This document shows positions 5,160 to 31,950 of a stretch of 40,804 nucleotides of DNA, in pieces. Both the position numbers and the translations under genes were made by a program. This DNA is from a virus: the UHGV virus genome UHGV-0164601. One strand, written 5' to 3'. Every line of letters starts with the position of its first letter. The stretch's first letter is position 1. A model generated the notes under the pieces. It was not told the origin of the DNA. It saw nothing but the letters and a program-made list of their open reading frames with translations, and ran no database searches.

Positions 5160-5744
5160 TTATTGTTTGTTTTTTTCGTTCTGGTTGATGACAAATTCAA
5201 TGTAACTTTCGATCTTTGCTTTCTCGGTTTCGGGTAACAATGCGTAGCGCGAGCGATCATAGTTGATGGTCGCAGGGTCGTGCGGGTGAATCAGTAATTC
5301 ATAGCCGTGACGCCCGAATGCGGATGCAACATTCTCCAGGGTGGAAATGGAAACGCTGACCTCATTGTTTAACAGGCGGCTGATTGTCACCTGGGCGACG
5401 CCGGATGCGCGGTGAAGTTTTCCCTGTGTTGAAAGGTCGCGGCTTTCGCTCATCCAGCGTTCCAGGTTGTGAGCCGCCAGCTGGCCAATGTCGCTTGGGC
5501 CGACAGGCTGAAAACCTTCCTGAGAAAGCGAGCGATCGATATCAAGCCAGTTACGGGGTTTATTGGCGGCAGCTTCAATTTTTCGCGCAACCTGATCGCC
5601 GATAACCTTCTTACCAAGAGCCCAGCGGTTTACCAGATTTGCCTGAGTTCCAAGTTTTTCAGCCATCCGCGTCTGAACACCATTGAATTCACGGTCGATC
5701 AAGTCGTTGAGATTTTGCCTGCGGACGTCCTGGATACTTTTCAT
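5160..5744 (-). CDS. Prophage repressor, double helix-turn-helix, no LexA-like S24 peptidase domain
   Basis: N-terminal XRE-type HTH (QTRMAEKLGTQANLVNRWALGKKVIGDQVARKIE) and a second HTH-like segment (VAQVTISRLLNNEVSVSISTLENVASAFG); divergent from a Cro-like gene; no Ser-Lys autocleavage module seen. Confidence 0.65.
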   Translation of the reverse strand: MKSIQDVRRQNLNDLIDREFNGVQTRMAEKLGTQANLVNRWALGKKVIGDQVARKIEAAANKPRNWLDIDRSLSQEGFQPVGPSDIGQLAAHNLERWMSESRDLSTQGKLHRASGVAQVTISRLLNNEVSVSISTLENVASAFGRHGYELLIHPHDPATINYDRSRYALLPETEKAKIESYIEFVINQNEKNKQ

Positions 5745-11297: not shown

Positions 11298-11628
11298 ATC
11301 AGCAGCAGAGCGCAAAGCCGCTCAGAGAGCCAGACAAGCTGCATCTGGTGTGCGTAAGCTGGAGATTGTGCTTGATGCTCAGGAAATTGAAATGCTGGAG
11401 CGTAACTGTGCCACGCGTCGCCCCGGGCGTGCGCCTTACGAATTTGGTGAGTATATAGCGTTACTGATCCGCCAGGATGATGCACGCGTGCGCGGGCGTA
11501 TAAAATCGATCAGCAGAAAACGTTGCGGTAAGTGCGGCGAGAGAGTTCCAGTTAATTCATGCCCGTGTAATGGTGACTCGCAATGCTGGGTGACTAAAGG
11601 CTGGCATGAAACGAAATTAATAGTGTGA
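11290..11628 (+). CDS. Hypothetical basic protein with C-terminal Cys cluster (possible regulator)
   Basis: 112 aa; Lys/Arg-rich N-terminus and CGKCGERVPVNSCPCNGDSQC; last gene before the terminator preceding the terminase operon. Confidence 0.45.
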   Translation: MAKSAAERKAAQRARQAASGVRKLEIVLDAQEIEMLERNCATRRPGRAPYEFGEYIALLIRQDDARVRGRIKSISRKRCGKCGERVPVNSCPCNGDSQCWVTKGWHETKLIV

Positions 11629-11677
11629 CATGTCACGAGTAGATTATGCATGATGAATTTGATGGATTTTGAATACT

Positions 11678-11703
11678 GCCGCCAACTATGGCGGCTTTAT
11701 TTT
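11678..11703 (+). terminator. Rho-independent terminator between the nin-like operon and the terminase operon
   Basis: GCCGCC-AACTAT-GGCGGC hairpin followed by TTTATTTT. Confidence 0.6.
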
Positions 11704-11714
11704 GCATGGTACTA

Positions 11715-11729
11715 TTACCACAACGGTAA
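11715..11729. promoter_or_regulatory. Operator-like palindrome TTACC-ACAAC-GGTAA upstream of the small terminase gene
   Basis: Perfect copy; a variant TTACC-ACGGT-GGTTA follows at 11733-11747 overlapping the terS ribosome-binding site. Confidence 0.5.
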
Positions 11730-11746
11730 CAATTACCACGGTGGTT

Positions 11747-12343
11747 ATGATGCCTGCTGAACCTAAAACCTATAAACGCAAATCAACGCAATTTAAGCCG
11801 CTCACAGCAATGCAGGAGGCTTATTGCCAGTCATACATCAAAACGCCTGAAAACCAGACTCAGGCTGCGATTAACGCAGGATTCTCCCCAAATACAGCGG
11901 CAGTTAAAGCCAGTGTCATGATGCGCGATGAACGCATTCAGAAACGGATTGCCGAGTTGATGGAGGAGCGCAACAAACGAATGCGTGTCAGTGCTGATTA
12001 CGTTCTCATGCGCCTGGTGGAGATCGACCAGATGGACGTGATCGACATCCTCAACGACGATGGGAGCCTTAAACCAATCCGTGAGTGGCCGAAAATCTGG
12101 CGCACTACGCTTAGTGGCTTTGATCTGTCATCGACCATCATGAACATGAACGAGGATTCAATAGAGACAATCCTCAAAAAAATTAAATGGCCTGACAAGG
12201 TGAAGAACCTTGAGCTGATTGGTAAGCATGTTGATGTCAACGCATTCAAAGAACGTCTGGATGTTAATGTGAATGTGACAATTGCTGATCGCATAGCAGC
12301 AGCCAGGAAGCGACTCAAAGAACGTCAGGATGGTAATCAGTGA
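11747..12343 (+). CDS. Terminase small subunit (Terminase_2-like)
   Basis: YCQSYIKTP...TQAAINAGFSPNTAAVKASVMMRDERIQKRIAEL matches the small-terminase HTH pattern; start at ATG 11747 (GGTGG upstream); upstream TTG-initiated extension rejected. Confidence 0.7.
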   Translation: MMPAEPKTYKRKSTQFKPLTAMQEAYCQSYIKTPENQTQAAINAGFSPNTAAVKASVMMRDERIQKRIAELMEERNKRMRVSADYVLMRLVEIDQMDVIDILNDDGSLKPIREWPKIWRTTLSGFDLSSTIMNMNEDSIETILKKIKWPDKVKNLELIGKHVDVNAFKERLDVNVNVTIADRIAAARKRLKERQDGNQ

Positions 12344-13815
12344 CAGATACAGCGTTATCTCCTGAAGAGCAGTTAATCGAGGATATTGCAGGGTTCACTC
12401 ACGATCCGCTTGGCTATGCCCTCTATGCGTTCCCGTGGGGGGAAGATGGGACTGAACTGGCACATGCCACCGGTCCACGTCAGTGGCAGGCTGATGCGTT
12501 CCGAGAGATACGTGATCACCTGCAGAATCCAGAGACGCGCTATCAGCCGCTTATGCTGGCACGCGCTTCTGGTCACGGTATTGGTAAATCCGCATTCATC
12601 TCAATGCTGATCAACTGGGGCATGTCCACTTGCGAGGATTGTAAGGTCGTGGTGACCGCCAACACCGACAACCAGCTACGAACGAAGACCTGGCCGGAAA
12701 TTATCAAGTGGTCGAACCTTGCTATCACGAAAGACTGGTTCACCTGCACCGCTACCGCGATGTACAGCAATGATCCTGGGCACGACAAGCGGTGGCGCGC
12801 TGACGCAATCCCCTGGTCTGAGCACAACACTGAGGCGTTCGCCGGACTACACAACGAGCGCAAACGCATCATCGTGGTATTCGATGAAGCGTCGAACATT
12901 GCGGATCTGGTGTGGGAAGTTGCTGAGGGTGCGCTTACGGACGAAGACACTGAGATTATCTGGGTAGCGTTCGGAAACCCTACACGTAACACCGGACGTT
13001 TCCGCGAATGTTTCCGCAAATATAAACACCGCTGGAAAACTGCGCAGATTGACAGCCGGACGGTGGAAGGCACTAACAAACAGCAGTTGCAGAAATGGGT
13101 TGATGACTACGGGGAAGACAGCGACTTCGTTAAAATCCGTGTGCGCGGCATATTCCCTGATGCATCTGAATTGCAGTTTATCCCTACCGGTCTTACTGAC
13201 GAGGCAATGAAACGGGTGGTAACTGCTGCGCAGGTGGCACATGCTCCGGTGATAATCGGCGTTGACCCTGCATACTCCGGTGTTGATGACGCGGTGATAT
13301 ACCTGCGGCAGGGGCTGCACAGTAAGGTGCTGTGGACCGGCAACAAGACCACTGACGATCTGATTATGGCGAAGCGTATCGCTGACTTTGAAGACCAGTA
13401 TCAGGCTGACGCGGTGTTCATCGACTTCGGTTACGGTACCGGGCTGAAGTCAATCGGTGACGGTTGGGGGCGCACATGGCAACTTGTTCCGTTCGGTGGC
13501 GCGTCTACTGACCCGCAGATGCTCAACAAGCGTGGGGAGATGTTCAACTCATGCAAGACATGGCTGAGGCTGGGCGGCATGCTGGATGACCAGGAAACAG
13601 CGGACGACCTGTCGGCGGCAGAGTACAAAGTTCGAGTGGACGGTAAAATCGTTATCGAACCTAAGGAAGATATCAAGGAGCGGCTTGGGCGTTCTCCGGG
13701 TAAAGGCGATGCGCTACTGCTGACGTTTGCTTTCCCGGTCTCGAAACGCATAAATATACCAGGACAGCAAAGCCAGCAGGGAAGGGCCATAACGGATTAT
13801 GACCCTTATGCTTAA
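12340..13815 (+). CDS. Terminase large subunit
   Basis: 491 aa directly after terS with GTGA overlap; ATPase-like N-terminal half (GHGIGKSAF Walker-A-like) and nuclease-like C-terminal half. Confidence 0.75.
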   Translation: MTDTALSPEEQLIEDIAGFTHDPLGYALYAFPWGEDGTELAHATGPRQWQADAFREIRDHLQNPETRYQPLMLARASGHGIGKSAFISMLINWGMSTCEDCKVVVTANTDNQLRTKTWPEIIKWSNLAITKDWFTCTATAMYSNDPGHDKRWRADAIPWSEHNTEAFAGLHNERKRIIVVFDEASNIADLVWEVAEGALTDEDTEIIWVAFGNPTRNTGRFRECFRKYKHRWKTAQIDSRTVEGTNKQQLQKWVDDYGEDSDFVKIRVRGIFPDASELQFIPTGLTDEAMKRVVTAAQVAHAPVIIGVDPAYSGVDDAVIYLRQGLHSKVLWTGNKTTDDLIMAKRIADFEDQYQADAVFIDFGYGTGLKSIGDGWGRTWQLVPFGGASTDPQMLNKRGEMFNSCKTWLRLGGMLDDQETADDLSAAEYKVRVDGKIVIEPKEDIKERLGRSPGKGDALLLTFAFPVSKRINIPGQQSQQGRAITDYDPYA

Positions 13816-13855
13816 TCCGCTGGTGGGGATAATGTCGTTGATATCCTCTGATGAG

Positions 13856-13885
13856 GATAAAACAAAGCCAGCTCATCGGCTGGCT
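13856..13885 (-). terminator. Terminator for the minus-strand moron (hairpin also faces the terminase operon)
   Basis: AGCCAGC-TCATCG-GCTGGCT hairpin with a TTGTTTTAT run on the minus strand. Confidence 0.45.
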
Positions 13886-13905
13886 GTTTGTGACATGTCA
13901 CGGTG

Positions 13906-14325
13906 TTACTTAATGGCATTAAATCCAGCGTTGATGGATTCCGCAATATTGATGGCACTTGTTTTATCGAAGTGCCCATTCTGAATAAGCGCCGCATGCA
14001 GGCATTGTAACTTCATGTTGTATAAGTTTTCGCGCATGTAATCATCATCACTTTTTTCTTTGGCGTATACAGCGCGAGAAATATCAAACACATCGCCTTT
14101 TTCCATTTCAGAACGTTGTGCTGTTATCCAGTCATGGAACGTAACGCTAGTACCATGGTCTTCGCTAAGAGTTAACCCGGTCAGTCCCTCACTCTGAATT
14201 ACTTCGTAATGCATTTCATTACCAGCAAAAACGCCATAAAAAACGCAGTCTTCAGCCTGAACGATACGAGAATATTTTAATGGCCATTCATTTAGATACT
14301 TAGCCAACATATCAATTGTCTTCAT
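13906..14325 (-). CDS. Hypothetical moron protein (139 aa) between terminase and portal, antisense to the late genes
   Basis: AAGGTG Shine-Dalgarno before ATG 14325; no recognisable domain. Confidence 0.55.
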   Translation of the reverse strand: MKTIDMLAKYLNEWPLKYSRIVQAEDCVFYGVFAGNEMHYEVIQSEGLTGLTLSEDHGTSVTFHDWITAQRSEMEKGDVFDISRAVYAKEKSDDDYMRENLYNMKLQCLHAALIQNGHFDKTSAINIAESINAGFNAIK

Positions 14326-14336
14326 AATCTCACCTT

Positions 14337-14360
14337 AAAAAAATGCCCGGCGAACCGGGC
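14337..14360 (-). terminator. Terminator/attenuator-like hairpin immediately upstream of the moron ribosome-binding site
   Basis: GCCCGG-CGAA-CCGGGC hairpin followed on the minus strand by A+TTTTTTT, directly abutting the AAGGTG Shine-Dalgarno. Confidence 0.45.
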
Positions 14361-14437
14361 GAACTGGAAGCAATGAGTTATGCCTTCCGTGGCTGTACTG
14401 GTTTACAGCATGAAGTCATCGCAATGGCGTCCTGCTG

Positions 14438-14480
14438 TAAAAAGGGCGGTGATAGTCCTTCAAGGGAAACCATCACCGCC
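14438..14480 (-). terminator. Terminator downstream of the tRNA
   Basis: 9-bp stem GGCGGTGAT/ATCACCGCC with 18-nt loop, followed on the minus strand by CTTTTTA. Confidence 0.5.
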
Positions 14481-14523
14481 AAGCCCCTGGAACTTCTGGC
14501 ATCACGGTCCTTAGGCGTGATTC

Positions 14524-14600
14524 TGGCGTGGCATGCAGGATTCGAACCTGCGACCAACCGCTTAGAAGGCGGTTGCTCTGTCCAACTGAGCTAATGCCAC
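14524..14600 (-). tRNA. tRNA-Arg, anticodon UCU (decodes AGA), phage-internal
   Basis: 77-nt cloverleaf read from the reverse complement: acceptor GTGGCAT/ATGCCAC, D-arm GCTC/GAGC, anticodon stem ACCGC/GCGGT with loop CTTCTAA, T-arm GCAGG-TTCGAAT-CCTGC, discriminator G, encoded CCA. Confidence 0.85.
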
Positions 14601-14922
14601 AACGCTGAGAGCACTTAGCCTGTTAAGGCACCACACTTTGTCGCGGCTCCATAAATGCTCTCATCGTTGTACCCTCGTCTCTTCCGAGGCGTCACACCGA
14701 ATCGCCGGGATGGTGAATCCCCGTGCGCGGAATAAAACCGCTCGACTTGCACATTCCGGCTACCTGGTTCGTTTGCCCGAGCAAGGGAGGGTGCCCCTTA
14801 AACGTATCCAGACCGCTATCGTCGCATGTGCCATACGCCGTACTGCTCAAAATAAAAGCTCACTCCACCTGTTCAATTTAACGACAAGCCAGTCAGGTTA
14901 GTAACCGGAATGAACTCTTTAG

Positions 14923-14937
14923 TTACCTGAAAGGTAA
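14923..14937. promoter_or_regulatory. Operator-like palindrome TTACC-TGAAA-GGTAA upstream of the portal operon
   Basis: Perfect copy; 44 bp upstream of ATGTGGTT (14982-14989). Confidence 0.5.
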
Positions 14938-15027
14938 TAATTCGCGCGTTAAATGTCAACTATCTACGATAAATAAATCATATGTGGTTAAATTGGTAAT
15001 AATTTAATTGCGTACGGAGTCATTGAT

Positions 15028-15234
15028 ATGTGCATGGGTAGCTCACCATCAGTGCCTGCAACACCAGAAGTTCAGGCAGCACCACAGGAGCAGGATGCTG
15101 CCGTTGTTGATGCCCGCGACGAAGAAACACGTCGCCGTCGCGCTGCTGCTGGTCGTAGTTCTACGCTGCTTACCGGTTCTCAGGGCGACACATCAACCGC
15201 TAATACCAGCGGTAAAACGCTGCTTGGTCAGTAA
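15028..15234 (+). CDS. Hypothetical small protein (68 aa), first gene of the head operon
   Basis: GGAG 8 nt before ATG 15028; the same 12-mer CGGAGTCATTGA precedes the portal start; Ala/Gln/Ser/Thr-rich. Confidence 0.4.
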   Translation: MCMGSSPSVPATPEVQAAPQEQDAAVVDARDEETRRRRAAAGRSSTLLTGSQGDTSTANTSGKTLLGQ

Positions 15235-15248
15235 CCGGAGTCATTGAA

Positions 15249-16928
15249 ATGGCGGAAACAACTAAAGAGCGATTGAACAAACAGTTCGCACAACTTGAAA
15301 GCGAGCGTCAGTCGTTCGAGCCGCACTGGCGCGAGTTGAGTGATTACATCAACCCGCGTGGTTCCCGCTTTCTGACTTCTGAGGCCAACCGTAACGATCG
15401 GCGCAATACACGCATTATTGATTCGACCGGGACTATGGCGGCGCGCACTCTCGCCAGCGGCATGATGTCAGGCATCACAAGCCCCGCGCGTCCGTGGTTT
15501 CGCCTGGCTACGCCAGATCCTGAAATGATGGATTATGGCCCTGTTAAGTTGTGGCTTGAGGCAGTTCAGAACCGCATGAACGATATGTTCAATAAGTCGA
15601 ATCTCTACCAGTCTCTTCCGCAGTTATACGGAAGCCTCGGCACATACAGCACTGGTGCAATGGCAGTGCTGGAGGATGACGAGGACATCATTCGCACAAT
15701 GCCATTCCCGATAGGCAGTTACTACCTGGCTAACTCACCTCGTGGCAGTGTTGACACCTGTTTTCGCAAGTTCTCTATGACTGTTCGTCAGCTTGTTCAG
15801 GAGTTCGGGCTAAATAACGTCAGCGAATCCGTAAAAAGCATGTGGGAAAGCGGCACCTACGAGAAGTGGATCGAAGTGATGCATTCGGTTTACCCGAACA
15901 TTGACCGCGATACATCGAAGCTGGATAGCAAGAACAAGCCATTCAAATCGGTTTATTACGAGGTTGGTGGAGATAACGACAAGTTGTTGCGTGAGTCCGG
16001 ATTCGATGAGTTTCCAATTATGGCTCCGCGCTGGGAAGTTAACGGCGAAGATGTTTATGGATCATCATGCCCGGGTATGCTGGCGCTTGGACCTGTTAAG
16101 GCATTGCAGCTTCTCCAGAAGCGCAAGTCGCAGTTGATTGATAAAGCCACCAATCCGCCGATGGTTGCTCCGACTTCCCTCAAGAATCAGCGCGCCTCCC
16201 TTCTTCCTGGCGACATCACGTATATCGATCAGATTACTGGTCAGGATGGCTTCAGGCCTGCTTATCTGGTTAACCCCAGTACAGCAGATTTGGTGGCAGA
16301 CATTCAGGACACTCGTCAAATCATTAACAGCGCCTACTTTGTCGATCTGTTCATGATGTTGCAGAACATCAATACCCGCTCGATGCCTGTTGAAGCGGTG
16401 ATCGAAATGAAAGAAGAAAAACTTCTGATGTTGGGGCCGGTTCTGGAGCGTCTGAACGACGAATGTCTTAATCCTCTCATTGACCGCGCTTTCTCGATGA
16501 TGGTGCGCAAAAACATGCTGCCGCCACCGCCTGACGCGATGGAAGGCATGCCCCTGAAGGTCGAATACATTTCCGTCATGGCTCAGGCGCAGAAGTCTAT
16601 CGGCCTGTCCAGTCTGGCGTCCACGGTTAACTTCATTGGTCAACTTGCGCAAGCGAAACCAGAAGCTCTCGACAAACTCAACGTTGATCAGGCGATCGAT
16701 GCATTCGCTGATATGTCCGGAGTGTCTCCAACCGTCATTGTTCCGCAGGAACAGGTTGAGCAGGCTCGCCAGCAACGGGCACAGCAACAACAGCAGCAAC
16801 AAATGATGGCGATGGGGATGGCGGCGGCACAGGGGGCCAAGACGCTAAGCGAAGCTAAAACTTCGGATCCGAGTGTGTTGTCAGCTATGGCGAATGCAGT
16901 TAGTGGTCAGGGTGGGCAATCACAATGA
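15249..16928 (+). CDS. Portal (head-to-tail connector) protein, T7 gp8-like
   Basis: 559 aa; located between terminase and scaffold/capsid; Gln/Ala/Met-rich C-terminal tail (QQRAQQQQQQQMMAMGMAAAQGA) as in T7-type portals. Confidence 0.75.
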   Translation: MAETTKERLNKQFAQLESERQSFEPHWRELSDYINPRGSRFLTSEANRNDRRNTRIIDSTGTMAARTLASGMMSGITSPARPWFRLATPDPEMMDYGPVKLWLEAVQNRMNDMFNKSNLYQSLPQLYGSLGTYSTGAMAVLEDDEDIIRTMPFPIGSYYLANSPRGSVDTCFRKFSMTVRQLVQEFGLNNVSESVKSMWESGTYEKWIEVMHSVYPNIDRDTSKLDSKNKPFKSVYYEVGGDNDKLLRESGFDEFPIMAPRWEVNGEDVYGSSCPGMLALGPVKALQLLQKRKSQLIDKATNPPMVAPTSLKNQRASLLPGDITYIDQITGQDGFRPAYLVNPSTADLVADIQDTRQIINSAYFVDLFMMLQNINTRSMPVEAVIEMKEEKLLMLGPVLERLNDECLNPLIDRAFSMMVRKNMLPPPPDAMEGMPLKVEYISVMAQAQKSIGLSSLASTVNFIGQLAQAKPEALDKLNVDQAIDAFADMSGVSPTVIVPQEQVEQARQQRAQQQQQQQMMAMGMAAAQGAKTLSEAKTSDPSVLSAMANAVSGQGGQSQ

Positions 16929-17221
16929 CAGATTACGAAGACGATCAACTGAAAGAAGAAAACGCCCGTAAGCAACGTGACATGGCACAGCGTGAAATTG
17001 ATGACATTCGCTTTGTCATGAGCAGTGAACAGGGGCGTCGCGTTGTCTGGTCGGTGCTGGAGAAAGGCCGGGTGTTTTCCGCTATCTCTCCGATGGATGC
17101 TATGGCAATGGCATTTAATGAGGGGCAACGCAATCTGGCGCTGGAACTGTTTCAGCGCGTTATGGCGCATTGCCCTGAACAGTATTTGAAGATGGCCAAA
17201 GAGGCCAGTGAACAGGAGTGA
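16925..17221 (+). CDS. Hypothetical head-assembly protein (98 aa)
   Basis: ATGA-coupled to the portal stop; acidic protein. Confidence 0.5.
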   Translation: MTDYEDDQLKEENARKQRDMAQREIDDIRFVMSSEQGRRVVWSVLEKGRVFSAISPMDAMAMAFNEGQRNLALELFQRVMAHCPEQYLKMAKEASEQE

Positions 17222-17223
17222 TC

Positions 17224-17919
17224 ATGAGTTTATTTGAGCGTTTGCTGTATCGCCGTCTTTGCAATGAGCAACAAGTCGATGGTGGGGCAGCTCCGGCTGC
17301 GTCAGAACCGTCAGCGCATGCAGATGATAACCCTGCTCCAGTTGGTGATCCATCACAACAGGAAGGTGATAAGCCACAACCTGTTTCTGATGGCGATAAA
17401 CCTGCTGATGACAAAAAGCCTGAAAACGATAAGCAGGATGAAAAAAAGGGCGGCGATAAACCAGAGGGTGCGCCTGAGAAGTACGAGTTTCAGGCTGCCG
17501 AAGGCGTAGAGCTGGATACAGAAGCGTTGAAGGAATTCGAGCCGGTGGCGCGAGAACTAAACCTGACCAACGAGCAAGCGCAAAAGCTGGTTGATGCTTA
17601 TCCGAAGATTCTGGCAGGTGTTCAGCAGCGCCAGGCAGAAGCCTGGCAGAAAACAACCGAGCAGTGGGCTGCGGATGTAAAAGCTGACAAAGAAATCGGT
17701 GGCGACAAGTTGATTTCTAACCTTAGCGCCGCACAGCGTGCGCTTGACCAGTTCGGGACACCTGAACTCAAAGAATATCTGAACACCACCGGACTGGGTA
17801 ATCACCCTGACCTGGTCAAAACGTTCGTGAAAATCGGAAAGGCGATGTCTGAAGATGGCATGGTCACCGGTGGTAATGAAGGCCAGCGTAGTGCGGCCGA
17901 AGTGCTCTATGGCAAATAA
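17224..17919 (+). CDS. Scaffolding protein (putative)
   Basis: Highly acidic, Lys/Glu/Asp/Pro-rich low-complexity N-terminal half, located immediately upstream of the major capsid gene; start at ATG 17224 (AGGAG upstream). Confidence 0.6.
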   Translation: MSLFERLLYRRLCNEQQVDGGAAPAASEPSAHADDNPAPVGDPSQQEGDKPQPVSDGDKPADDKKPENDKQDEKKGGDKPEGAPEKYEFQAAEGVELDTEALKEFEPVARELNLTNEQAQKLVDAYPKILAGVQQRQAEAWQKTTEQWAADVKADKEIGGDKLISNLSAAQRALDQFGTPELKEYLNTTGLGNHPDLVKTFVKIGKAMSEDGMVTGGNEGQRSAAEVLYGK

Positions 17920-17933
17920 GAGAGGAAATGACA

Positions 17934-18920
17934 ATGGCTGTTAAAGGCTTAACTGCGCTAACGCTGGCTGACTGGGGTAAGCGCGTCGATCCAAACGGGA
18001 AAGTCGATAAGATTATCGAGCTTCTCGGTCAAACTAACCCGATCCTTCAGGATATGCCTTTTGTCGAAGGGAACCTTCCTACCGGACACCGAACCACCAT
18101 TCGTTCTGGTTTACCTTCAGCTACCTGGCGTTTGCTGAACTATGGCGTACAGCCAAGCAAATCAACCACAGTGCAGGTAACCGATTCCGTTGGCATGCTG
18201 GAAACCTATGCTGAAGTCGATAAGTCACTGGCTGATCTGAACGGCAATACCGCCGAATTCCGCCTGTCTGAAGACCGCGCATTTATTGAAGCGATGAATC
18301 AGCAGATGGCGCAGACGCTGTTTTATGGTGATTCCAGCGTTAACCCTCAGCAGTTTATGGGACTGTCCTCCCGCTATTCCAGCCTGTCTGCAGGTAATGC
18401 TCAGAACATCATTGATGCTGGTGGCACGGGCACAGATAACACCTCAATCTGGTTAGTGGTGTGGGGCGAAAACACCGTGCATGGCATCTTCCCGAAAGGG
18501 CAGAAGGCTGGCATTCAGATGGAAGATAAAGGCCAGGTGACACTGGAAGATGCTAATGGCGGCAAGTACGAAGGCTACCGTACCCATTACAAATGGGACA
18601 ACGGACTTGCTCTGCGTGACTGGCGTTATGTTGTTCGCATTGCAAACATCGATGTCAGCAATCTTTCAGAACCTTCCTCTGCCGCAAATATTGCGAAGTT
18701 GATGGTTAAAGCACTGCATCGCATTCCAAACCGTGGCATGGGTCGCCCGGTGTTCTACATGAACCGCACTGTAGGCCAGGCTCTTGATCTGCAGTCTCTG
18801 GAGAAAACATCTCTGGCGATTAGCGTAAAAGAGACTGAAGGCGAGTGGTGGACGTCATTCCGTGGTGTACCAATCCGTGAAACTGATGCGCTTCTGGAAA
18901 CAGAAGCCCGCGTGGTGTAA
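17934..18920 (+). CDS. Major capsid protein (putative)
   Basis: About 36-kDa protein directly after the scaffold gene in a T7-like gene order; start at ATG 17934 (GAGGA 7 nt upstream). Confidence 0.6.
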   Translation: MAVKGLTALTLADWGKRVDPNGKVDKIIELLGQTNPILQDMPFVEGNLPTGHRTTIRSGLPSATWRLLNYGVQPSKSTTVQVTDSVGMLETYAEVDKSLADLNGNTAEFRLSEDRAFIEAMNQQMAQTLFYGDSSVNPQQFMGLSSRYSSLSAGNAQNIIDAGGTGTDNTSIWLVVWGENTVHGIFPKGQKAGIQMEDKGQVTLEDANGGKYEGYRTHYKWDNGLALRDWRYVVRIANIDVSNLSEPSSAANIAKLMVKALHRIPNRGMGRPVFYMNRTVGQALDLQSLEKTSLAISVKETEGEWWTSFRGVPIRETDALLETEARVV

Positions 18921-18971
18921 CGCCTGTTATTAACCTGTGGGTCGTAACAGACCCACTAATGGAGAAAGAAG

Positions 18972-19409
18972 ATGATCACCGACAAACTGTTGATGTTCTC
19001 CGAAGCTCAGGCGGTTACGAATACCGCGGCTTCTACTGACGTAATCGATCTCGGTCCAATTGATGGAAACCGTCGCGATATCGGTGTGGGTTACCCGCTT
19101 GAGTTTTGGGTGCTGGTTAACGAAGCCGCCACGGCAAGTGGTGAGGCAACTGTAAACATCCAGTTGCAGACGAGTGAGAATAACAGCTCTTGGACCACTA
19201 TTTATGATAGTGGTGCGTTGGCAAAGGCCACCCTGACAGCAGGTAAGCGAGTTGTTTCTGCAAAGGTGCCAGCCGGTGTTCAGCGATATCTGCGTGTTAA
19301 CTACTCCGTCGCAACTGGCCCACTAACGGCCGGCAAATTCACTGCGGGTATCAGTCTGGATGTTGATGCCAATACGCCGTACCCGATCCGCTCAAAAGTA
19401 ACTGGTTAA
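18972..19409 (+). CDS. Hypothetical virion protein (145 aa; possible capsid decoration/accessory)
   Basis: Position directly after the capsid gene; Thr/Ala/Val-rich. Confidence 0.45.
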   Translation: MITDKLLMFSEAQAVTNTAASTDVIDLGPIDGNRRDIGVGYPLEFWVLVNEAATASGEATVNIQLQTSENNSSWTTIYDSGALAKATLTAGKRVVSAKVPAGVQRYLRVNYSVATGPLTAGKFTAGISLDVDANTPYPIRSKVTG

Positions 19410-19419
19410 GGTGATATCG

Positions 19420-19755
19420 ATGTCAGGTGAGAAACCAAGATACCGCGTTCTGCGCCTCTCTCATATCCATAACACACTGTGGCCGGAGGGGGCAGAAATC
19501 GAATACGAAGGTGAGCCTGGTAGCGCACTGGAACCTGTTAACGATGCAGCCAGACAGGCAAAAGCAAAGGTAGCAGGAAAGGTGTCTATGGCAGCAACCA
19601 GCACCAAAATCATCAACGATGTGTCAGATGATGGTGAACTGGATAAGCTCCGTGAAGAGTACGAATTGCTCTTTAACGAGAAGCCACACCATAACGCTAA
19701 AGCCGAAACGCTCCGAGAGAAGATCGCAGATAAGCGTAAAGAACTGGGCGTGTAA
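19420..19755 (+). CDS. Hypothetical protein (111 aa)
   Basis: AAGGTGA before ATG 19420; followed by a strong terminator. Confidence 0.45.
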   Translation: MSGEKPRYRVLRLSHIHNTLWPEGAEIEYEGEPGSALEPVNDAARQAKAKVAGKVSMAATSTKIINDVSDDGELDKLREEYELLFNEKPHHNAKAETLREKIADKRKELGV

Positions 19756-19771
19756 GCCTCGCGAATCCGAC

Positions 19772-19793
19772 AAGGGGCTTCGGCCCCTTTATT
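19772..19793 (+). terminator. Rho-independent terminator after the capsid gene block
   Basis: AAGGGGC-TTCG-GCCCCTT hairpin followed by TATT; the next gene's AGGAG Shine-Dalgarno begins 2 nt later. Confidence 0.6.
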
Positions 19794-19805
19794 GCAGGAG
19801 TGTAT

Positions 19806-20129
19806 ATGGAACTCGTAAACCTCAAAACCGGCACTGACAGCTACCAGGATGAGAGCGGAGAAACCAGAACTCGCGATGAATACCCGTGGGAGCTGTGCAT
19901 CACTCTTAATAACGACACATTGAATAAGCTGAAGGCGCAACCTCAGGGCGTCGGAACAGAAGTGATGATAACTGCAAAGGCTGTTATTCGAGGCCTGTCT
20001 GCCAGAGAAACTGACGATGGTGTTAATCGCAGCGCCGATCTGCAGATCACTGATATGGCGATCGCTCCTGTTTCCAGGGATGTAGAAAAATCAGCGGCTG
20101 AAACTCTGTACGGTAACGGAGGTGAGTGA
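19806..20129 (+). CDS. Hypothetical virion/assembly protein (107 aa)
   Basis: AGGAG 6 nt before ATG 19806. Confidence 0.5.
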   Translation: MELVNLKTGTDSYQDESGETRTRDEYPWELCITLNNDTLNKLKAQPQGVGTEVMITAKAVIRGLSARETDDGVNRSADLQITDMAIAPVSRDVEKSAAETLYGNGGE

Positions 20130-20734
20130 TGGCCTCTGTAGTAGAGATCTGTAATCGTGCGCTGTCCAATATTGGCAACAGCCGCAGTATTAACAGCCTG
20201 ACGGAAGCCAGCAAGGAAGCGGGGGAATGTTCGCTGCACTTTGAGGCCTGCCGTGATGCTGTTCTTTCTGATTTTGACTGGAACTTTGCTACCAAACGCG
20301 TGGCGCTTGCAGATACGAGCAATCCACCGCCTGACTGGGAATATGCGTACCAGTACCCGTCCGATTGTCTGCGCATTACTGAAATTATGCTTCCTGGTGT
20401 ACGCAATCCAACAGCAGCAATGCGCGTTCAGTACGAAGTTGGTGCAGACACCAACGGAACAGGAAAGTTGATCTACACAGACCAGCCGCAGGCATGGCTC
20501 AAGTATGTCTCTCGCGTTTCAGATGTGAACATGTTTGATGCCATTTTTATGGAGGCGTTGGCCTGGCGTCTTGCGGCAGCTATTAACATGGCGCTCACTG
20601 GGAATGCAGACCTCGGTACGTTTGCCCTCAATATGTACAATCGCGTGATTCTTAGTGCTGGCTCGCATAGCCAGAATGAATCACAGGAACCACAGCCACC
20701 GGTTGACGAGTTTACCATTGCGAGGTTGTCCTGA
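20129..20734 (+). CDS. Tail tubular protein A-like (T7 gp11 analogue), putative
   Basis: About 200 aa, precedes a large tail-tube B-like gene; GGAGGTGA before ATG 20129. Confidence 0.5.
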   Translation: MASVVEICNRALSNIGNSRSINSLTEASKEAGECSLHFEACRDAVLSDFDWNFATKRVALADTSNPPPDWEYAYQYPSDCLRITEIMLPGVRNPTAAMRVQYEVGADTNGTGKLIYTDQPQAWLKYVSRVSDVNMFDAIFMEALAWRLAAAINMALTGNADLGTFALNMYNRVILSAGSHSQNESQEPQPPVDEFTIARLS

Positions 20735-23199
20735 TGGCTATCAGTTGGATCCAGCCCAGCTTTGCCGGTGGTGAGATTGGACCGTCGTTGTACGGTCGTA
20801 TCGACATGGCGAAGTACCAGGTGGCATTGCGCAAGTGCGATAACTTTATCGTGCGGCAGTATGGCGGCGTTGAGAATCGACCTGGTACGCGTTTTGTCGG
20901 TGCCGCCAAATACCCAAATCGGAAATGCCGCCTGATCCCGTTCCAGTTCTCGACGGTTCAGACTTATGCTCTGGAGTTCGGACACCAGTACATGCGCGTT
21001 ATCAAAGATGGTGCGTTGGTGCTGAACAGCAGCAATGTTATTTATGAAATTGCCACGCCATATACTGAAGCCGATCTGTTCCGAATTAAATTCACGCAAA
21101 GCGCAGACGTGCTTACGCTGGTTCATCCGGCATACCCGCCGAAAGAGTTGCGCCGCTATGCGCATGACAACTGGCAACTGGTTGATGTGGTAACGAAGAA
21201 CGGGCCATTTGAAGATATCAATATTGACGAGTCAGTGACGGTTTATGCCAGCGCCAGCACCGGGACAATTACGTTAACGGCAAGCGCCTCAATTTTTGGC
21301 GCGGAGCAGGTAGGCAAATTGTTCTATCTGGAACAGCCTGCAGTGGATTCTGTGCCGGTATGGGAAACCAGTAAGAGTACGTCGATTGGCGATATTCGCC
21401 GTGCAGACAGTAACTACTATCGCGCCGTTACAGCAGGCAAAACAGGCACTTTGCGCCCTTCGCATACAGAAGGCACATCATGGGATGGCTGGGGCGGATC
21501 CGGTGATGATGATACCGGCATTGAGTGGGAGTATCTGCACAGTGGTTTTGGCATTGCCCGTATCTCTGCTGCAAATGGAACTACTGCAACTGCCGAGGTG
21601 ATTTCCTATATCCCTTCGCAGGTAGTTGGCGAGGATAATGCCAGCTATAAATGGGCTAAATATGCCTGGAACAGTATTAACGGTTATCCTGGCACTGTTG
21701 TTTATTATCAACAACGCCTTTACTTCGCCGCATCGACTGCGTTCCCTCAGACTATCTGGGCCAGCCGTACCGGGGATTATAAGGATTTTGGCAAAAGCAA
21801 TCCTACGCAGGATGACGACAGAATTATCTACACCTATGCCGGGCGTCAGGTTAATGAGATCCGTCACCTGATTGATGTTGGTTCGCTGGTGGCGCTGACT
21901 TCCGGAGGTGAGTACGTCATCACTGGCGACCAGAACAAAGTGCTTACCCCATCATCATTTGCATTCAGCTCTCAGGGATCAAATGGCTCGAGCAATGTCC
22001 CACCAATTGCCGTGGCGAATATTGCTCTGTTCGTCCAGGAGAAAGGCAGTGTTGTCCGTGATCTGGCCTACTCATTCGATGTTGACGGCTATCAGGGGAA
22101 CGACCTGACCATCCTTGCCAATCATCTTTTTCAGAAGCACAGCATTGTTGACTGGTGCTTCTCGATTGTCCCTTACTCCAGCGCCTTCTGCATTCGTGAT
22201 GACGGTAAATTACTGGTGATGACCTATTTGCGTGATCAGCAGGTTTTTGCATGGGCACCACAATCCAGTACCGGAAAATATGAAAGCACATGCAGTATCA
22301 GCGAAGGCAATGAAGATGCGGTGTATTTCGTCGTTAACCGAACCGTTAACGGGCAAACAGTGAGATACATAGAGCGACTGTCCAGCCGTTTATTTACCAG
22401 CGATGAAGATGCTTTCTTTGTTGATTCTGGCCTTAGCTATGATGGAAGAAATACGTCTGACAGAACGATGACCATCACTGGTGGTTCTGGTGAATGGGAT
22501 TACCGTGCGGAATATACAATCAGTGTTTCTGGTGGTGCGTACTTCACCAGTAGTGATGTCGGCGCGCAACTACAGTTCCCTTATACCGGAACTGATCCTG
22601 ATACTGAAGTGTCAAAAGAATTACGTTGCGACATTATTTCTGTAACCAGCAATACCGCTGTAGTGGTTCGTGCTAACAGGAACGTCCCGCCATCCCTCAG
22701 GAATGTGGCCACCACGAACTGGCAGATGGCGCGCCGGACATTTGGAGGCCTGTCTCATCTTGAAGGCCAGACCGTAAACATTCTCTCTGATGCGAACGTG
22801 GAACCACAGAAAGTGGTTTCCGGAGGTGCCGTCACGCTGGAATCACCTGGGGCTGTAGTGCACATCGGCCTGCCAATAACTGCTGAATTCGAAACACTGG
22901 ATATCAACATTAACGGACAGGAAACGCTGCTGGACAAAAAACAGGTGATCCCGTCCGTTACTCTGGTTGTGAATGCCAGTCGTGGCATCTGGGCGACTAC
23001 GCCCGGCGGTAAATGGTACGAATATCCACAGCGTGAATTCGAGTTCTACGATGATCCTGTTGATGACGCTACCGGAAAAGTAGAAGTGAAACTGGACAGT
23101 AACTGGGGCAAAAACGGACGTGTAAGAATCCGTCAGCTTGACCCGTTGCCGCTGTCTGTTCTTGCCGTTATTCCTCGTCTTACTGTTGGGGGATTCTGA
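20734..23199 (+). CDS. Tail tubular protein B-like (T7 gp12 analogue), putative
   Basis: 821-aa protein following the gp11-like gene with 1-nt stop/start overlap; Gly/Ser/Thr-rich beta-rich composition. Confidence 0.5.
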   Translation: MAISWIQPSFAGGEIGPSLYGRIDMAKYQVALRKCDNFIVRQYGGVENRPGTRFVGAAKYPNRKCRLIPFQFSTVQTYALEFGHQYMRVIKDGALVLNSSNVIYEIATPYTEADLFRIKFTQSADVLTLVHPAYPPKELRRYAHDNWQLVDVVTKNGPFEDINIDESVTVYASASTGTITLTASASIFGAEQVGKLFYLEQPAVDSVPVWETSKSTSIGDIRRADSNYYRAVTAGKTGTLRPSHTEGTSWDGWGGSGDDDTGIEWEYLHSGFGIARISAANGTTATAEVISYIPSQVVGEDNASYKWAKYAWNSINGYPGTVVYYQQRLYFAASTAFPQTIWASRTGDYKDFGKSNPTQDDDRIIYTYAGRQVNEIRHLIDVGSLVALTSGGEYVITGDQNKVLTPSSFAFSSQGSNGSSNVPPIAVANIALFVQEKGSVVRDLAYSFDVDGYQGNDLTILANHLFQKHSIVDWCFSIVPYSSAFCIRDDGKLLVMTYLRDQQVFAWAPQSSTGKYESTCSISEGNEDAVYFVVNRTVNGQTVRYIERLSSRLFTSDEDAFFVDSGLSYDGRNTSDRTMTITGGSGEWDYRAEYTISVSGGAYFTSSDVGAQLQFPYTGTDPDTEVSKELRCDIISVTSNTAVVVRANRNVPPSLRNVATTNWQMARRTFGGLSHLEGQTVNILSDANVEPQKVVSGGAVTLESPGAVVHIGLPITAEFETLDININGQETLLDKKQVIPSVTLVVNASRGIWATTPGGKWYEYPQREFEFYDDPVDDATGKVEVKLDSNWGKNGRVRIRQLDPLPLSVLAVIPRLTVGGF

Positions 23200-23663
23200 T
23201 GATCGATGTTCGAATTATTCCCGCCACCGAAGAGCATCTTCAGATGATTTTGCCGGATGTTCGTCAGGCTGATATTGACGAACTGTATGCGGTATCGCTG
23301 ATGACTACCGAAGATGCGCTGCGTGTTGGTCTTCGCACTGCGACTATGGCCTGGTCAGGGTTCGCGAACGGAGAACTGGTAACCATGTTTGGTGTATCTC
23401 CGGCGTCAATGATCGGTGGCAATGGTACACCCTGGCTGGTCGGAACCAGCCGTATTGAAAAATATCAGAAGACATTTCTTCGCCACTGCCGACCTGTATT
23501 GCAGCAGATGCTGGCAGTTTATCCGCGCCTGGAAAACTACGTCGACGAGCGAAACCATGTTGCCAAAGCATGGCTGCACTGGCTTGGATTCAGGCTTGAA
23601 GAAGCCGCGCCTTATGGTGCTCTTGGTCTTAATTTCCACAGATTTCACATGGAGAGAAAATAA
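23199..23663 (+). CDS. Hypothetical virion protein (154 aa)
   Basis: ATGA-coupled between the tail-tube B-like and internal core genes. Confidence 0.45.
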   Translation: MIDVRIIPATEEHLQMILPDVRQADIDELYAVSLMTTEDALRVGLRTATMAWSGFANGELVTMFGVSPASMIGGNGTPWLVGTSRIEKYQKTFLRHCRPVLQQMLAVYPRLENYVDERNHVAKAWLHWLGFRLEEAAPYGALGLNFHRFHMERK

Positions 23664-24241
23664 TGTGTAACCCAGCCATCGCTTTGGTTGCCGTCACAGT
23701 GGCATCCACAGCAGCGTCAATGTACAGCCAGAGCAAGCAGGCAAAATACCAGTCAGCCGTAGCTGATCGGAATGCTGAAATTGCTGAAGCTCAGGCACAG
23801 GATTCAATCAATCGTGGGAATATTGAAGCGGATCAGCGTCGTCGTGAAATGCGTCAACGCTCAGGCACTGCGGCGGCCACTATGGGGGCTACCGGTGCGG
23901 AATTAAGTAGCGGAACAGCTCTTGACGTTTTTGCGGATAATGCTCAGTTCGGCACTCTTGATGCGTTAACGACAGTGAATAATGCTCAGCGTGAGGCATA
24001 TGGGTATCAGGTTCAGGGAATGAATGCTCAGGCACAGGGGGCTGCTGCTCAGTCGGCTGCTAAATCATCGATGACCAGCACTTTGTTAACGGCACCACTA
24101 AAAGCATACGGTGCGTACCAGATGTTTGGTGGGACGTGGAGTCCGTTCTCTAAAGGAAGTACATCTAGTGGTGGGACGCCAATGTTATCTAACTCAGGTT
24201 TTATGAATTCTGACTCCAGATTCAAAATAGGAGGTTACTGA
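23663..24241 (+). CDS. Internal virion protein A-like (T7 gp14 analogue)
   Basis: 192 aa beginning MCNPAIALVAVTVASTAAS with an Ala/Gln-rich body, like the N-terminus of T7 gp14; first of three consecutive core genes. Confidence 0.6.
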   Translation: MCNPAIALVAVTVASTAASMYSQSKQAKYQSAVADRNAEIAEAQAQDSINRGNIEADQRRREMRQRSGTAAATMGATGAELSSGTALDVFADNAQFGTLDALTTVNNAQREAYGYQVQGMNAQAQGAAAQSAAKSSMTSTLLTAPLKAYGAYQMFGGTWSPFSKGSTSSGGTPMLSNSGFMNSDSRFKIGGY

Positions 24242-29900: not shown

Positions 29901-30377
29901 GCACAGCATAACAGGGTGCTGGTATCTGGTATCCAGCAGGGCGATGCTGCATTCTATCTTGGTGCGCTTGGCACGATTGCGCTTGGCTCAATGGTCTATA
30001 TGATGAAACAGAAGTTAAGCGGTCGCGATATCGACTACAGCTGGAATAACCTTGTGAAAGAGGGGATCGACCGGGGCGGAATGCTTGGCTGGCTCTCTGA
30101 GCCGCTGAATACCGTTGAGAACATAAGCGGCGGTAGGTTTGGTCTTGGCGCGATGTTTGGTGCGCCTCCGGTATCAAGGTTTCAGAGTCGTAATGCTATT
30201 GGTGCTTTACTTGGTCCTACCTTTGATCTTGGCGGTGATGCCGCGACGGTTGCAAATGGTGTACTTAACGGAGAATTTGACAGCCAGCAAACCCACGCTG
30301 TCCGTAAAATGCTACCTTTTCAGAATCTGTGGGCGATATCACCATTACTAAATAAAGTTGAAGAGCAGATGAAATAG
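26988..30377 (+). CDS. Internal virion (core/ejection) protein D-like, 1129 aa
   Basis: Largest ORF of the structural module, immediately after the 915-aa core gene, as T7 gp16 follows gp15. Confidence 0.5.
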   Translation: MPIYEQDPKELLGEDIQQIAAPDDSNFYMETPSLLSAVNPFTSDQRVQRSRQAAFRIDNTLGSFIASAPFSQFDRVEGYNPFDNDAADIKGYEDFADSFINSGSHEETMAIKHRIDKQRTDREYLSEMGGAGTISSLAMGMIDPVNVAAMFIPVGAVARGGSIAETAGRFALANAAGGGVSEAALQATQEARSPMESVSNVVVDALVGGILGAGAQLLAGPSAREAVVNSVGNHLRGMDSPQSIGAAQVFNTTLDQEQLAGLGLANKTLSVTPAGRLAQSPSLVSRQINQQLAENNYFFAKNDEGLATFTAVETKIKQYDAMLYKQMEATRDAYQQYSKSVSARGVKRMNFIDFNEAVGMAMRRGDQSDIPEVSQAAARIRPIFETTKARMQELGILPEDIDVVTAKSYLPRIYKFDKILSDRTEFRGRIANWIQGISAKGADKAGQRIEKINSLLKTAEESAPRADALASEIAEAEKWSGKKILLMEELDKRNKLISQETDTQARLTRIEKELAETSSEKLQARMMKESSDLKTRLDDIAQAKSELPVYQRHMELLDNPRKYRSELRRLQKRANSTTRLNASRERALKQMEPLSREEAEDAADEIVNKIIGAPSGLVPADIIPERLVGRAGFTKSRTLLIPDERIEDFLESDVNYIMESYLRQVAPEIELTAQFGRKDMGEQIRQVSEEYTRLIKEAKTPKRRAVLEKQREADIRDITAMRDRLLGTYGAPQDPRSFFVRAGRVARNINFLRLLGGMTVSAATDLMRPMMQHGLRKSLGPMVSMLKNMDSVKIATRDLREMAVGLDYVLSTRTKAIADLTDPYSRRSAAERGLNWMTQKFGNWTLMNQWNSALKSWSGMIVQSRILDAARQVSAGGTLSKSEMRKMAQVGINEDVLRRIGEQFGKHGEDMDGLLTGHSHLWDDRFAREIFQSAVLKDVDSVIVTPGVGDTPLFFSKEGWKMITQFKTFIFAQHNRVLVSGIQQGDAAFYLGALGTIALGSMVYMMKQKLSGRDIDYSWNNLVKEGIDRGGMLGWLSEPLNTVENISGGRFGLGAMFGAPPVSRFQSRNAIGALLGPTFDLGGDAATVANGVLNGEFDSQQTHAVRKMLPFQNLWAISPLLNKVEEQMK

Positions 30378-30378
30378 G

Positions 30379-31230: not shown

Positions 31231-31236
31231 TCAAAC

Positions 31237-31261
31237 AGGCCGCTTTCGCGGCCTTGTTTTT
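31237..31261 (+). terminator. Rho-independent terminator after the secreted-protein gene
   Basis: AGGCCGC-TTTC-GCGGCCT hairpin followed by TGTTTTT. Confidence 0.6.
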
Positions 31262-31300
31262 AACGAATGCCACCGCCGCCTGGGTGGGAATCCGCAGACA

Positions 31301-31323
31301 CAAAAAAGCCCGCGCCGCGGGCT
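31301..31323 (-). terminator. Rho-independent terminator of the minus-strand two-gene cassette
   Basis: GCCCGC-GCC-GCGGGC hairpin containing the stop codon, followed on the minus strand by TTTTTTGT. Confidence 0.5.
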
Positions 31324-31762: not shown

Positions 31763-31782
31763 GACAAACTCCTAATGTGCTT

Positions 31783-31950
31783 CTATTTGGAGCGAAATGC
31801 CGCCTTGAAGTCGCTGAAAGATGTTCCTGTCTGGTAAACCATATCCTTGTCGCGCTCTTTGCTTGCGCGGCCAAGCATAACTTTTCCAATGACATCCCAG
31901 CATTGCTTGGCTTGTTCATTGTGCTGAGTACGATTTTTCAACGCTGTCAT
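31783..31950 (-). CDS. Hypothetical small protein (55 aa), proximal gene of the two-gene cassette
   Basis: Not in the ORF track (<60 aa); ATG 31950 preceded by AGGAGG (31957-31962); MTALKNRTQHNEQAKQCWDVIGKVMLGRASKERDKDMVYQTGTSFSDFKAAFRSK. Confidence 0.45.
   Translation of the reverse strand: MTALKNRTQHNEQAKQCWDVIGKVMLGRASKERDKDMVYQTGTSFSDFKAAFRSK

Follow-up and report, generated by a model that had tools for sequence, protein, structure and literature searches.

How a small gene that lies behind two terminators and shows no promoter of its own is expressed, and what occupies the sequence upstream of the neighbouring tRNA gene, are the questions raised by the gap between the terminase and portal genes of the virus genome UHGV-0164601. 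The whole stretch of 40,804 nucleotides (nt) which was analysed is called the window in the following; the region of interest comprises positions 13,856–14,937. An earlier note made from the letters of the sequence, the first-pass annotation, had described here a tRNA gene, two terminators and a gene for a protein of 139 amino acids (aa), situated between the terminase and portal genes and antisense to both, and this location was found as claimed. The gap between TerL and the gp3-like gene measures 1.2 kb, and all its contents are on the minus strand, antisense to the terminase genes and to gp3/portal. In the direction of minus-strand transcription, the cassette consists of a candidate promoter with operator, a structured RNA, the tRNA, terminator T1, an invariant block, terminator T2, an exchangeable gene (termed cargo here) and terminator T3. 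The tRNA, the terminators and the gene without a promoter do exist and belong to a cassette which had already been seen in phiV10-type prophages; for this known phage group they are nothing unusual, and what is new is the RNA family.

A structured RNA upstream of the tRNA gene

Positions 14601–14937, which had been passed over in the first-pass annotation, contain a candidate promoter, an operator and a structured RNA supported by covariation. When the 340 nt between promoter and tRNA were aligned over relatives, invariant blocks were seen, together with variable segments which differ in both length and sequence and nevertheless retain pairing. RNAalifold, applied to an alignment of 23 diverse sequences, gave 48 base pairs in nine helices, 20 of the pairs with compensatory double changes. 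In a pair-count test on the same alignment, 98.5% of cells were paired, compared with 33–48% when the partners were slid by 1–3 columns; pairs with double changes numbered 1–8 in these slid controls, and none of 500 shuffles attained the observed values. The loops UAUGGCACAUG, GUAGCCGGAAUGUGCAAG and GAAGAGA are invariant. The last helix is CAAC...GUUG, and the RNA ends on the first base of the tRNA. The single-sequence fold of the 340-nt leader is unexceptional (z -1.4), and the structure is visible only through comparison with relatives. From this comparative sequence evidence, 14843–14601 is a new structured-RNA family, well supported as a structure. An additional loop-loop pairing, GCACAU/AUGUGC, was considered and found unsupported: there is hardly any variation in either segment, and the two variants observed are not compensatory.

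Family searches were carried out with an nhmmer profile of the RNA, which scored 143 bits on the window. Apart from tRNAs, nothing in Rfam matched the window (E <= 1) or eight other loci (E <= 0.5), and a text search with two signature sequences of the RNA gave no relevant paper.

Among 96 distinct related cassettes, 92 have the complete RNA and 64 the tRNA; the RNA is therefore the constant element and the tRNA an option. In loci without a called tRNA, the RNA is followed by GUUGUGGUGAAU, 80–250 variable nt and then CCACCACAAC. The two ends pair into a closing stem, which takes the position of the acceptor stem of the tRNA; the inner pairs differ by locus, with pairing kept. Because of this position of the closing stem, the tRNA fills the slot of a tRNA-like domain, which is closed by GUUGUGGUG/CACCACAAC in the loci without tRNA and whose variable part often contains T-arm-like hairpins, e.g., GGUUCGAYUCC. 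Prophages of Erwinia dacicola and Pseudescherichia contain a second tandem copy of the last RNA module, CAACAGGTAAGAGCATT...AGTGCTCTTTCCGTTGTGGTGAA, which encloses a T-arm-like hairpin. The small hairpin just 3' of the tRNA, ATCACGCCTAAGGACCGTGAT, is conserved in sequence with or without a tRNA, and its folding energy is unexceptional (z -0.1). At the corresponding place of phage epsilon15 (2552–2771), most of the RNA and the whole tRNA have been lost by a natural deletion, with T1, the invariant block, T2 and the promoter-less gene gp50 kept; the remnant corresponds to about the first 52 positions of the RNA only, and part of it lies under the feature "RNaseIII" of that record.

Altogether 139 phage records were found by blastn to contain the RNA, and the main cases were confirmed with the profile. 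Lambdoid carriers are mEp460, mEp390, 2H10, 716R3, Stx2a_WGPS2 and Stx2c phages; in the lambdoid phages examined and in several prophages, the RNA comes immediately after the cI repressor gene. The copy of mEp460 is directly preceded by operator-like repeats, TTGC-N7-GCAA, which it shares with the cro-cI region, and is followed by a tRNA-like domain, a T1-like terminator, a hairpin whose arms measure 25 nt, and the early genes; neither a promoter match nor an N-like open reading frame (ORF) was found between the RNA and the early genes of this phage. A position between an early promoter and downstream terminators is shared by the window, mEp460, Stx2a_WGPS2, 716R3 and several prophages, and in most of the contexts examined, lambdoid ones included, the RNA module is succeeded by a T1-like terminator. 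Phages P1 and P7 have the RNA in the ban operon, which is controlled by C1, between tRNA-Ile (trnI) and ban (P1, NC_005856: 71023–71195, 106 bits). In P1 it lies just after the tRNA, some 2.4 kb away from the annotated ban promoters in the downstream direction, and a short ORF comes next, the stop of which overlaps the start of ban (TAATG). Klebsiella myophage KpV79 has a shorter, stand-alone unit (locus L159, about 2455–2715), antisense to baseplate and tail-fibre genes, which consists of a promoter TTGACA-17-AATTAT, an RNA of about 190 nt and a terminator GCCCCGG-UCC-CCGGGGC with U11. In the Lastavirus SopranoGao, the RNA is found downstream of lysis genes.

A search with an 18-mer from one invariant block yielded 27 contigs among species-representative genomes, 4 of which look like chance matches; Kosakonia, Phytobacter, Citrobacter, Kluyvera, Klebsiella, Erwinia, Buttiauxella and Pseudescherichia were represented. 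Of 5426 complete E. coli genomes, 1840 contain the RNA, with up to four copies each, and 554 of the places are on plasmids. No annotated feature was present under the RNA among the RefSeq matches listed. The RNA is thus widespread, i.e., in prophages, P1-type plasmids, Stx-converting phages and phage P1, and present in neither Rfam nor the RefSeq annotation listed.

Table 1. Features of the cassette and its surroundings in the window (positions are those of the window; T1–T3, terminators).
Feature	Position	Strand	Basis or remarks
Structured RNA, ~243 nt, nine helices	14601–14843	-	23-sequence alignment, RNAalifold, nhmmer profile
Candidate sigma-70 promoter of cassette	14931–14959	-	read from sequence; predicted start near 14924
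Palindromic operator TTACCTGAAAGGTAA	14923–14937		overlaps -10 region and predicted start
TTACC-N5-GGTAA sites	5026, 5088, 5800, 5848, 8131, 8193, 11715, 11733, 14923, 31963, 33004, 33097, 34217, 37842		
tRNA-Arg(UCU), 77 nt	14524–14600	-	ARAGORN; Rfam tRNA model RF00005
Small hairpin ATCACGCCTAAGGACCGTGAT	14501–14521	-	just 3' of tRNA
T1	14438–14480	-	stem 14480–14445, 14 bp, then CTTTTT; terminator scan
Invariant block TTTACAGCAGGACGCCATTGCGATGACTTCATGCTGTAAACC	14400–14441	-	42 nt; includes CTGT half of LexA-like motif
T2	14337–14360	-	GCCCGG-TTCG-CCGGGC 14360–14345, A, T7 14343–14337
Cargo gene (139 aa) with ribosome-binding site AAGGTGAG	13906–14336 (ORF 14325–13906)	-	ORF list, phrog_4846
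Palindrome GTGACATGTCAC (perfect)	13890–13901		downstream boundary of cargo
T3	13858–13885 (stem 13885–13866)		terminator scan; -12.8 kcal/mol, z -3.7
TerS	11669–12343	+	ORF list and records of relatives
TerL	12340–13815	+	ORF list and records of relatives
gp3-like gene	15028–15234	+	ORF list and records of relatives
Portal gene	15249–16928	+	ORF list and records of relatives

Promoter, terminators and the cargo slot

As read from the sequence, the sole promoter candidate found for the cassette consists of TTGACA (14959–14954), a spacer of 17 nt and TACCTT (14936–14931); the -35 hexamer, the spacing and TACCTT are kept in relatives from E. coli, Salmonella and Klebsiella. The motif TTACC-N5-GGTAA was found at 14 sites in the window, when at most one mismatch was allowed, compared with 0.63 expected. 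Its copy in the cassette is a perfect palindrome, and the -10 hexamer lies inside it. Other copies flank the gene of a helix-turn-helix repressor (5160–5744), and sites are likewise found ahead of TerS, the tRNA cassette, a Bro-N antirepressor-like gene and the tailspike region; in the record of epsilon15, a repressor binding site is annotated at the homologous position. From the positions of these sites, the cassette would appear to be repressed in the lysogen, and by analogy with C1 in phage P1 a single repressor may control many operons directly.

Both terminators of the first-pass annotation were borne out by folding energies (T1, -22.8 kcal/mol, z -5.0; T2, -12.7 kcal/mol, z -3.3) and by compensatory changes. 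The stem of T1 is retained by different sequences in other lineages, and in T2 the arms GCCCGG/CCGGGC are changed to GCCCAC/GTGGGC, i.e., GG/CC to AC/GU, in 7 of 31 representative sequences. Judging from these comparisons, T1 and T2 behave as selected terminators. One relative from IMG/VR (L068) has the T1 loop inverted, GTCCTTCAAGGGAAAC for GTTTCCCTTGAAGGAC (window 14445–14480), with the stem the same, as if the loop had been flipped.

The T-run of T2 directly abuts the ribosome-binding site AAGGTGAG (14336–14329) of the cargo gene, whose ATG is at 14325. The same arrangement was present in 71 of the 96 cassettes; in the other 25, a promoter of the type GTGAC-N-TTACC-N5-GGTATAAT, which carries the same operator, is inserted exactly after the T-run. 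No promoter was found directly upstream of the cargo of the window by a consensus scan, and the inserted form of the relatives is absent there. Since the inserted promoters of the relatives show what a promoter at this junction looks like, the cargo of the window would lack one of its own and should depend on transcription through T2. The earlier proposals that T2 leaves no room for a promoter and that the gene may need read-through were therefore sound. Whether a cassette has the RNA is not associated with its type of cargo promoter, since nearly all of the 96 cassettes have it.

An exception to this dependence would be a start hidden in the invariant block (14441–14400), i.e., an unconventional or activator-dependent promoter which drives the cargo and makes read-through unnecessary. 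The block is the longest invariant stretch among eight GenBank uetakeviruses and the most conserved part of the region across four host genera; it starts with TTTACA, which matches the -35 consensus in five of six positions, and it is retained whatever lies upstream (tRNA, no tRNA, or a different T1). However, no -10-like hexamer is present 15–19 nt from TTTACA or from TTGCGA, and the consensus scan gave no promoter match in the block on the minus strand; a transcript from the block would still have to cross T2, and the block is equally conserved where the cargo has its own promoter past T2. A start in the block is, in our estimation, improbable.

Within the block, a weak hairpin (z -1.7) with one covarying pair was observed, and the reading frame is not kept. 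In the lambdoid phages, a long hairpin is found at the place of the block. A coding reading of the segment between T1 and T2 was rejected for either strand, since the frames are broken by indels of 4 nt and 33 nt, and an ORF of 83 aa on the plus strand in this segment extends over the tRNA in antisense direction. In the loop of T1, a sigma-32-like match (CCCTTGAA-N12-CCCTTTTTA) was discarded as well, its TTGAA part being missing in Klebsiella-type and BUCT711-type sequences; and for a sigma-54 promoter, an RfaH ops site or an integration host factor site in the block, nothing fitted the consensus by eye.

The first-pass annotation had described an attenuator-like leader and a weak LexA-like element. 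On this reading, T2 would be an attenuator with read-through regulated by an alternative RNA structure, and the LexA-like site would couple the gene to the SOS response. T2 does abut the ribosome-binding site, and CTGT-N8-ACAG is present at 14393–14408. Yet this motif occurs at chance level (three sites in the window, 0.65 expected; 3 of 100 shuffles reach three), its spacer AAACCAGT is not AT-rich, about 12 of 20 positions match the LexA consensus (TACTGTATATATATACAGTA), and the ACAG half is missing in Salmonella (epsilon15/SPN9TCW-type) and Klebsiella-type sequences. The phage has instead a near-perfect LexA box, AACTGTATATTTATACAGTAG, at 34162–34177. For an attenuator-like leader, neither a conserved alternative helix nor a leader peptide was found: no antiterminator pairing that would compete with T2 is conserved in the alignment of relatives, PAS61 has lost the 33 nt between the invariant block and T2 and has kept T2, and a possible ORF of 13 codons, starting from a conserved ATG, keeps neither its length nor a Shine-Dalgarno sequence. 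The comparison of relatives thus largely refutes the combination of attenuator and SOS control, which we regard as very improbable.

Downstream of T2, the genes differ between phages, and T2 is the upstream boundary of cargo exchange; for instance, the similarity to Klebsiella phage sequences (H21, H24) starts at about 14336, just below the T-run. The ORF of 139 aa following T2, as described before, is a real member of a protein family: it gave a full-length match to phrog_4846 and has 105 homologues in Enterobacteriaceae. Its C-terminal part of about 49 aa is common to other cargo proteins, including proteins of 123 aa and the gene of phage Tyrion. No match was obtained in Pfam, NCBIfam, PADLOC or the sequences of the Protein Data Bank (PDB). 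An AlphaFold2 model had a mean predicted local distance difference test (pLDDT) value of 67 and a predicted template modelling score of 0.36, with a C-terminal helical hairpin as the only part above pLDDT 80; with this low-confidence model, Foldseek gave nothing in the PDB at E < 0.9.

Other cargo genes at the slot were recognised by Pfam as encoding Tad2-like proteins, of which there were three different ones (E 1e-23 to 4e-26), one protein with an Acb2/Tad1 hairpin domain (E 4e-17), and members of the gp49/Sf6 gp66 family; the four anti-defence genes all belong to the type without an inserted promoter. Relatives therefore have, at exactly this slot, genes of the Tad2 and Acb2/Tad1 sponge type, which the 139-aa protein of the window does not resemble; alignment of its family with the Acb2-like cargo by hhalign gave a probability of 0.07%. 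By its position in the slot alone, the protein is a candidate for a counter-defence function, and the slot after T2 would be a place to look for new counter-defence genes, the 139-aa family included.

The cargo had also been called a moron. With the morons of Hendrix and colleagues it shares the small size, the variable occupation of a place between conserved late genes, the terminator which follows (T3) and the exchange from phage to phage. Unlike these, it has no promoter of its own, and expression in the prophage is doubtful because the only promoter candidate upstream carries a repressor-type operator. These features do not agree with the notion of a moron which has a promoter to itself and is expressed by the prophage, and neither do the anti-defence genes which occupy the slot in relatives.

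Expression of the cassette and the role of the RNA

The best explanation of the locus as a whole, which we hold with moderate confidence, is a repressor-controlled accessory cassette on the minus strand, comprising RNA and tRNA, with a cargo that is reached by read-through. The cassette would probably be off in the lysogen by means of the phage repressor and on during lytic growth. One promoter, covered by the operator, would transcribe the RNA of about 243 nt and then the tRNA-Arg(UCU), and cleavage by RNase P at the 5' end of the tRNA should release the RNA as a separate molecule. Most transcripts would probably stop at T1 or T2. Those reading through could carry the promoter-less cargo, to be translated from the ribosome-binding site which abuts the U-run of T2, and T3 would end the unit. 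Small accessory genes, several of which encode anti-defence proteins, are exchanged at the cargo slot.

Several observations weigh against this explanation. The -10 hexamer of the candidate promoter matches the consensus in only three of six positions, and the promoter was missed by a strict consensus scan. No similarity of the 139-aa protein to an anti-defence family could be detected. Epsilon15 has lost most of the RNA and the whole tRNA and yet keeps T1, T2 and a promoter-less cargo. Two strong tandem terminators before genes for sponge proteins, which are presumably needed in quantity, fit leakage poorly, and this poor fit points to active antitermination or to an unseen promoter.

Antitermination could be provided by the RNA itself, as a cis-acting processive antiterminator like put of phage HK022: the transcribing polymerase, once bound by the nascent RNA, would be taken past T1 and T2, and likewise past the equivalent terminators of the lambdoid phages, so that genes behind terminators would be expressed only from the operator-controlled promoter. 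The place of the RNA in the lambdoid phages is in accordance with this, just after cI and before a T1-like terminator and early genes which show no promoter match or N-like ORF, and so are the operator-like repeats upstream of the RNA in mEp460 and, in the cassette, the two terminators and promoter-less anti-defence genes downstream of it. The put RNA of HK022 lies in the same position and needs no protein factor; it and the putL-like RNA of HK639 share with the lambdoid copies of the new RNA the location after a repressor-controlled early promoter and before intrinsic terminators and promoter-less genes (PMC9378689). But put has about 70 nt and two stem-loops, whereas the new RNA, with its nine helices, is about 3.5 times as large, and there is no sequence relation: the nhmmer profile gave no match in HK022 (20–32 kb) or in HK639, including its annotated putL-like RNA. 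The stand-alone copy of KpV79 has nothing downstream to antiterminate, the copy of P1 is remote from the ban promoters and comes just after a tRNA, and epsilon15, which is without most of the RNA, still keeps terminators and cargo. We consider antitermination by the RNA rather unlikely; that the RNA, by analogy with put, is the founder of a widespread class of protein-independent processive antiterminators is a doubtful proposition. If it were true, the RNA would be the functional counterpart of HK022 put in many lambdoid phages without N, and in the uetakeviruses it would be a switch which lets an early, repressor-controlled promoter express the tRNA and the anti-defence genes behind tandem terminators.

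Alternatively, the RNA could be a self-contained gene for a stable, trans-acting RNA (compare ROOL and GOLLD), or a tRNA-like decoy, with T1 as its terminator; the cargo would then be expressed by ordinary leakage or from an unrecognised promoter. The unit of promoter, RNA and terminator in KpV79 agrees with this, as does the occurrence downstream of lysis genes in SopranoGao. The RNA is always found beside a tRNA or a tRNA-like domain, some of its variable arms contain hairpins similar to T-loops, and a T1-like terminator closes the module in most contexts. The RNAs ROOL and GOLLD of phages are likewise structured and lie near tRNA genes, and tRNAs are sometimes embedded in the linker of GOLLD, the expression of which rises during lysis (PMC12286853); here, a tRNA occupies an internal or terminal domain slot. 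However, no match to the Rfam models of ROOL or GOLLD was obtained, the hosts of the new family are Enterobacteriaceae, and about 243 nt is far below the size of GOLLD, many members of which exceed 800 nt (PMC12286853). A trans-acting RNA would also leave the early-left transcription of the lambdoid phages past T1 unexplained, where the only promoter with an operator is upstream of the RNA. We rate the independent RNA gene as quite possible, just short of an even chance.

As to the function of the RNA, the position in the PL leader and the anti-defence genes behind two terminators argue for antitermination, whereas the unit of KpV79, the position in the ban operon of P1 and the deletion in epsilon15 argue for an independent, trans-acting RNA. 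Its location after the immunity repressor gene makes it testable how lambdoid phages without an N-like gene at this place pass their early terminators. The tie to tRNAs and tRNA-like domains, inside a cassette which trades anti-defence genes, makes the RNA a candidate for a new RNA-based phage function.

The tRNA, codon usage and flanking sequences

The canonical 77-nt tRNA-Arg with anticodon UCU, as called from the sequence before, was confirmed. ARAGORN placed the anticodon tct at position 35 of the gene, the score with the Rfam tRNA model was 73.3 bits (gathering score 29; E 1.8e-15), and a 3' CCA is encoded at 14526–14524. Annotation of a tRNA-Arg at this place, from TerL to gp3/portal, already exists for O157 typing phages 9 and 10, phiv142-3, SPN9TCW and SPC32H, and for many E. 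coli prophages of RefSeq; ARAGORN detected it in phiV10 and PAS61, but not in epsilon15 or Tyrion. It is the same gene at the same place as in the phiV10-type and SPN1S-type uetakeviruses, and the tRNA itself is no different. In some records, such as that of phiV10, an antisense ORF is annotated across the tRNA instead (phiV10p04, phrog_4647). This is the plus-strand ORF of 83 aa at 14343–14594 of the window, antisense to the tRNA and the T1–T2 region, and almost certainly represents a mis-annotation propagated through public records.

Codons were counted in 40 ORFs picked by hand from the ORF list. AGA and AGG amounted to 7.5 and 5.5 per 1000 codons, respectively, and are enriched in comparison with E. 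coli K-12, where AGA is used about twice and AGG 1.2–1.6 times per 1000. AGA was absent from the ten picked genes of 11669–19409 (TerS to the ORF ending at 19409) and occurred 5–13 times in each of the tail, injection and tailspike genes (19411–37311). These counts fit a supply role of the tRNA, which would serve to decode AGA in the genes that are rich in this codon, namely those for tail, injection and tailspike and the early genes. The tRNA might instead serve chiefly as a counter-defence, replacing host tRNA-Arg cut by anticodon nucleases or acting as a decoy for these, since it shares the cassette with a slot for Tad2-like and Acb2/Tad1-like genes and is optional, as accessory counter-defences tend to be. 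But the clear enrichment of AGA and AGG in the phage genes suffices to explain a tRNA that reads AGA, and the anticodon loop, which we take to be identical to that of the host argU tRNA, would not evade a nuclease recognising the loop; we know of no defence system which targets tRNA-Arg(UCU). A role mainly in counter-defence seems improbable to us.

The integrase gene opens the window, and the best megablast matches of the region were HEMP4, PAS61, phiV10, TL-2011b and O157 typing phages 9 and 10, with many E. coli prophages matching as well; according to sequence, the window is an epsilon15/phiV10-type podophage prophage of the genus Uetakevirus. The LexA box at 34162–34177 lies just upstream of a short minus-strand ORF with a likely start near 34139, and a copy of the operator is present at 34217; from this arrangement, the ORF is a candidate for an SOS-controlled antirepressor or induction gene.

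T3 closes the cargo gene and sits just past TerL on the other strand; at the corresponding place, the phiV10 record annotates a rho-independent terminator after TerL. The 12-bp palindrome GTGACATGTCAC has a second exact copy at 11625–11636, upstream of terS, and the two copies bracket terS-terL. It is retained beside T3 in "empty" cargo slots of relatives and may be a recombination boundary or a binding site. The copy at 11625–11636 is followed by GAATTTGATGGATTTTGA, which resembles a remnant ORF, MKYEFDGF, beside the second copy in the "empty" slots of relatives.

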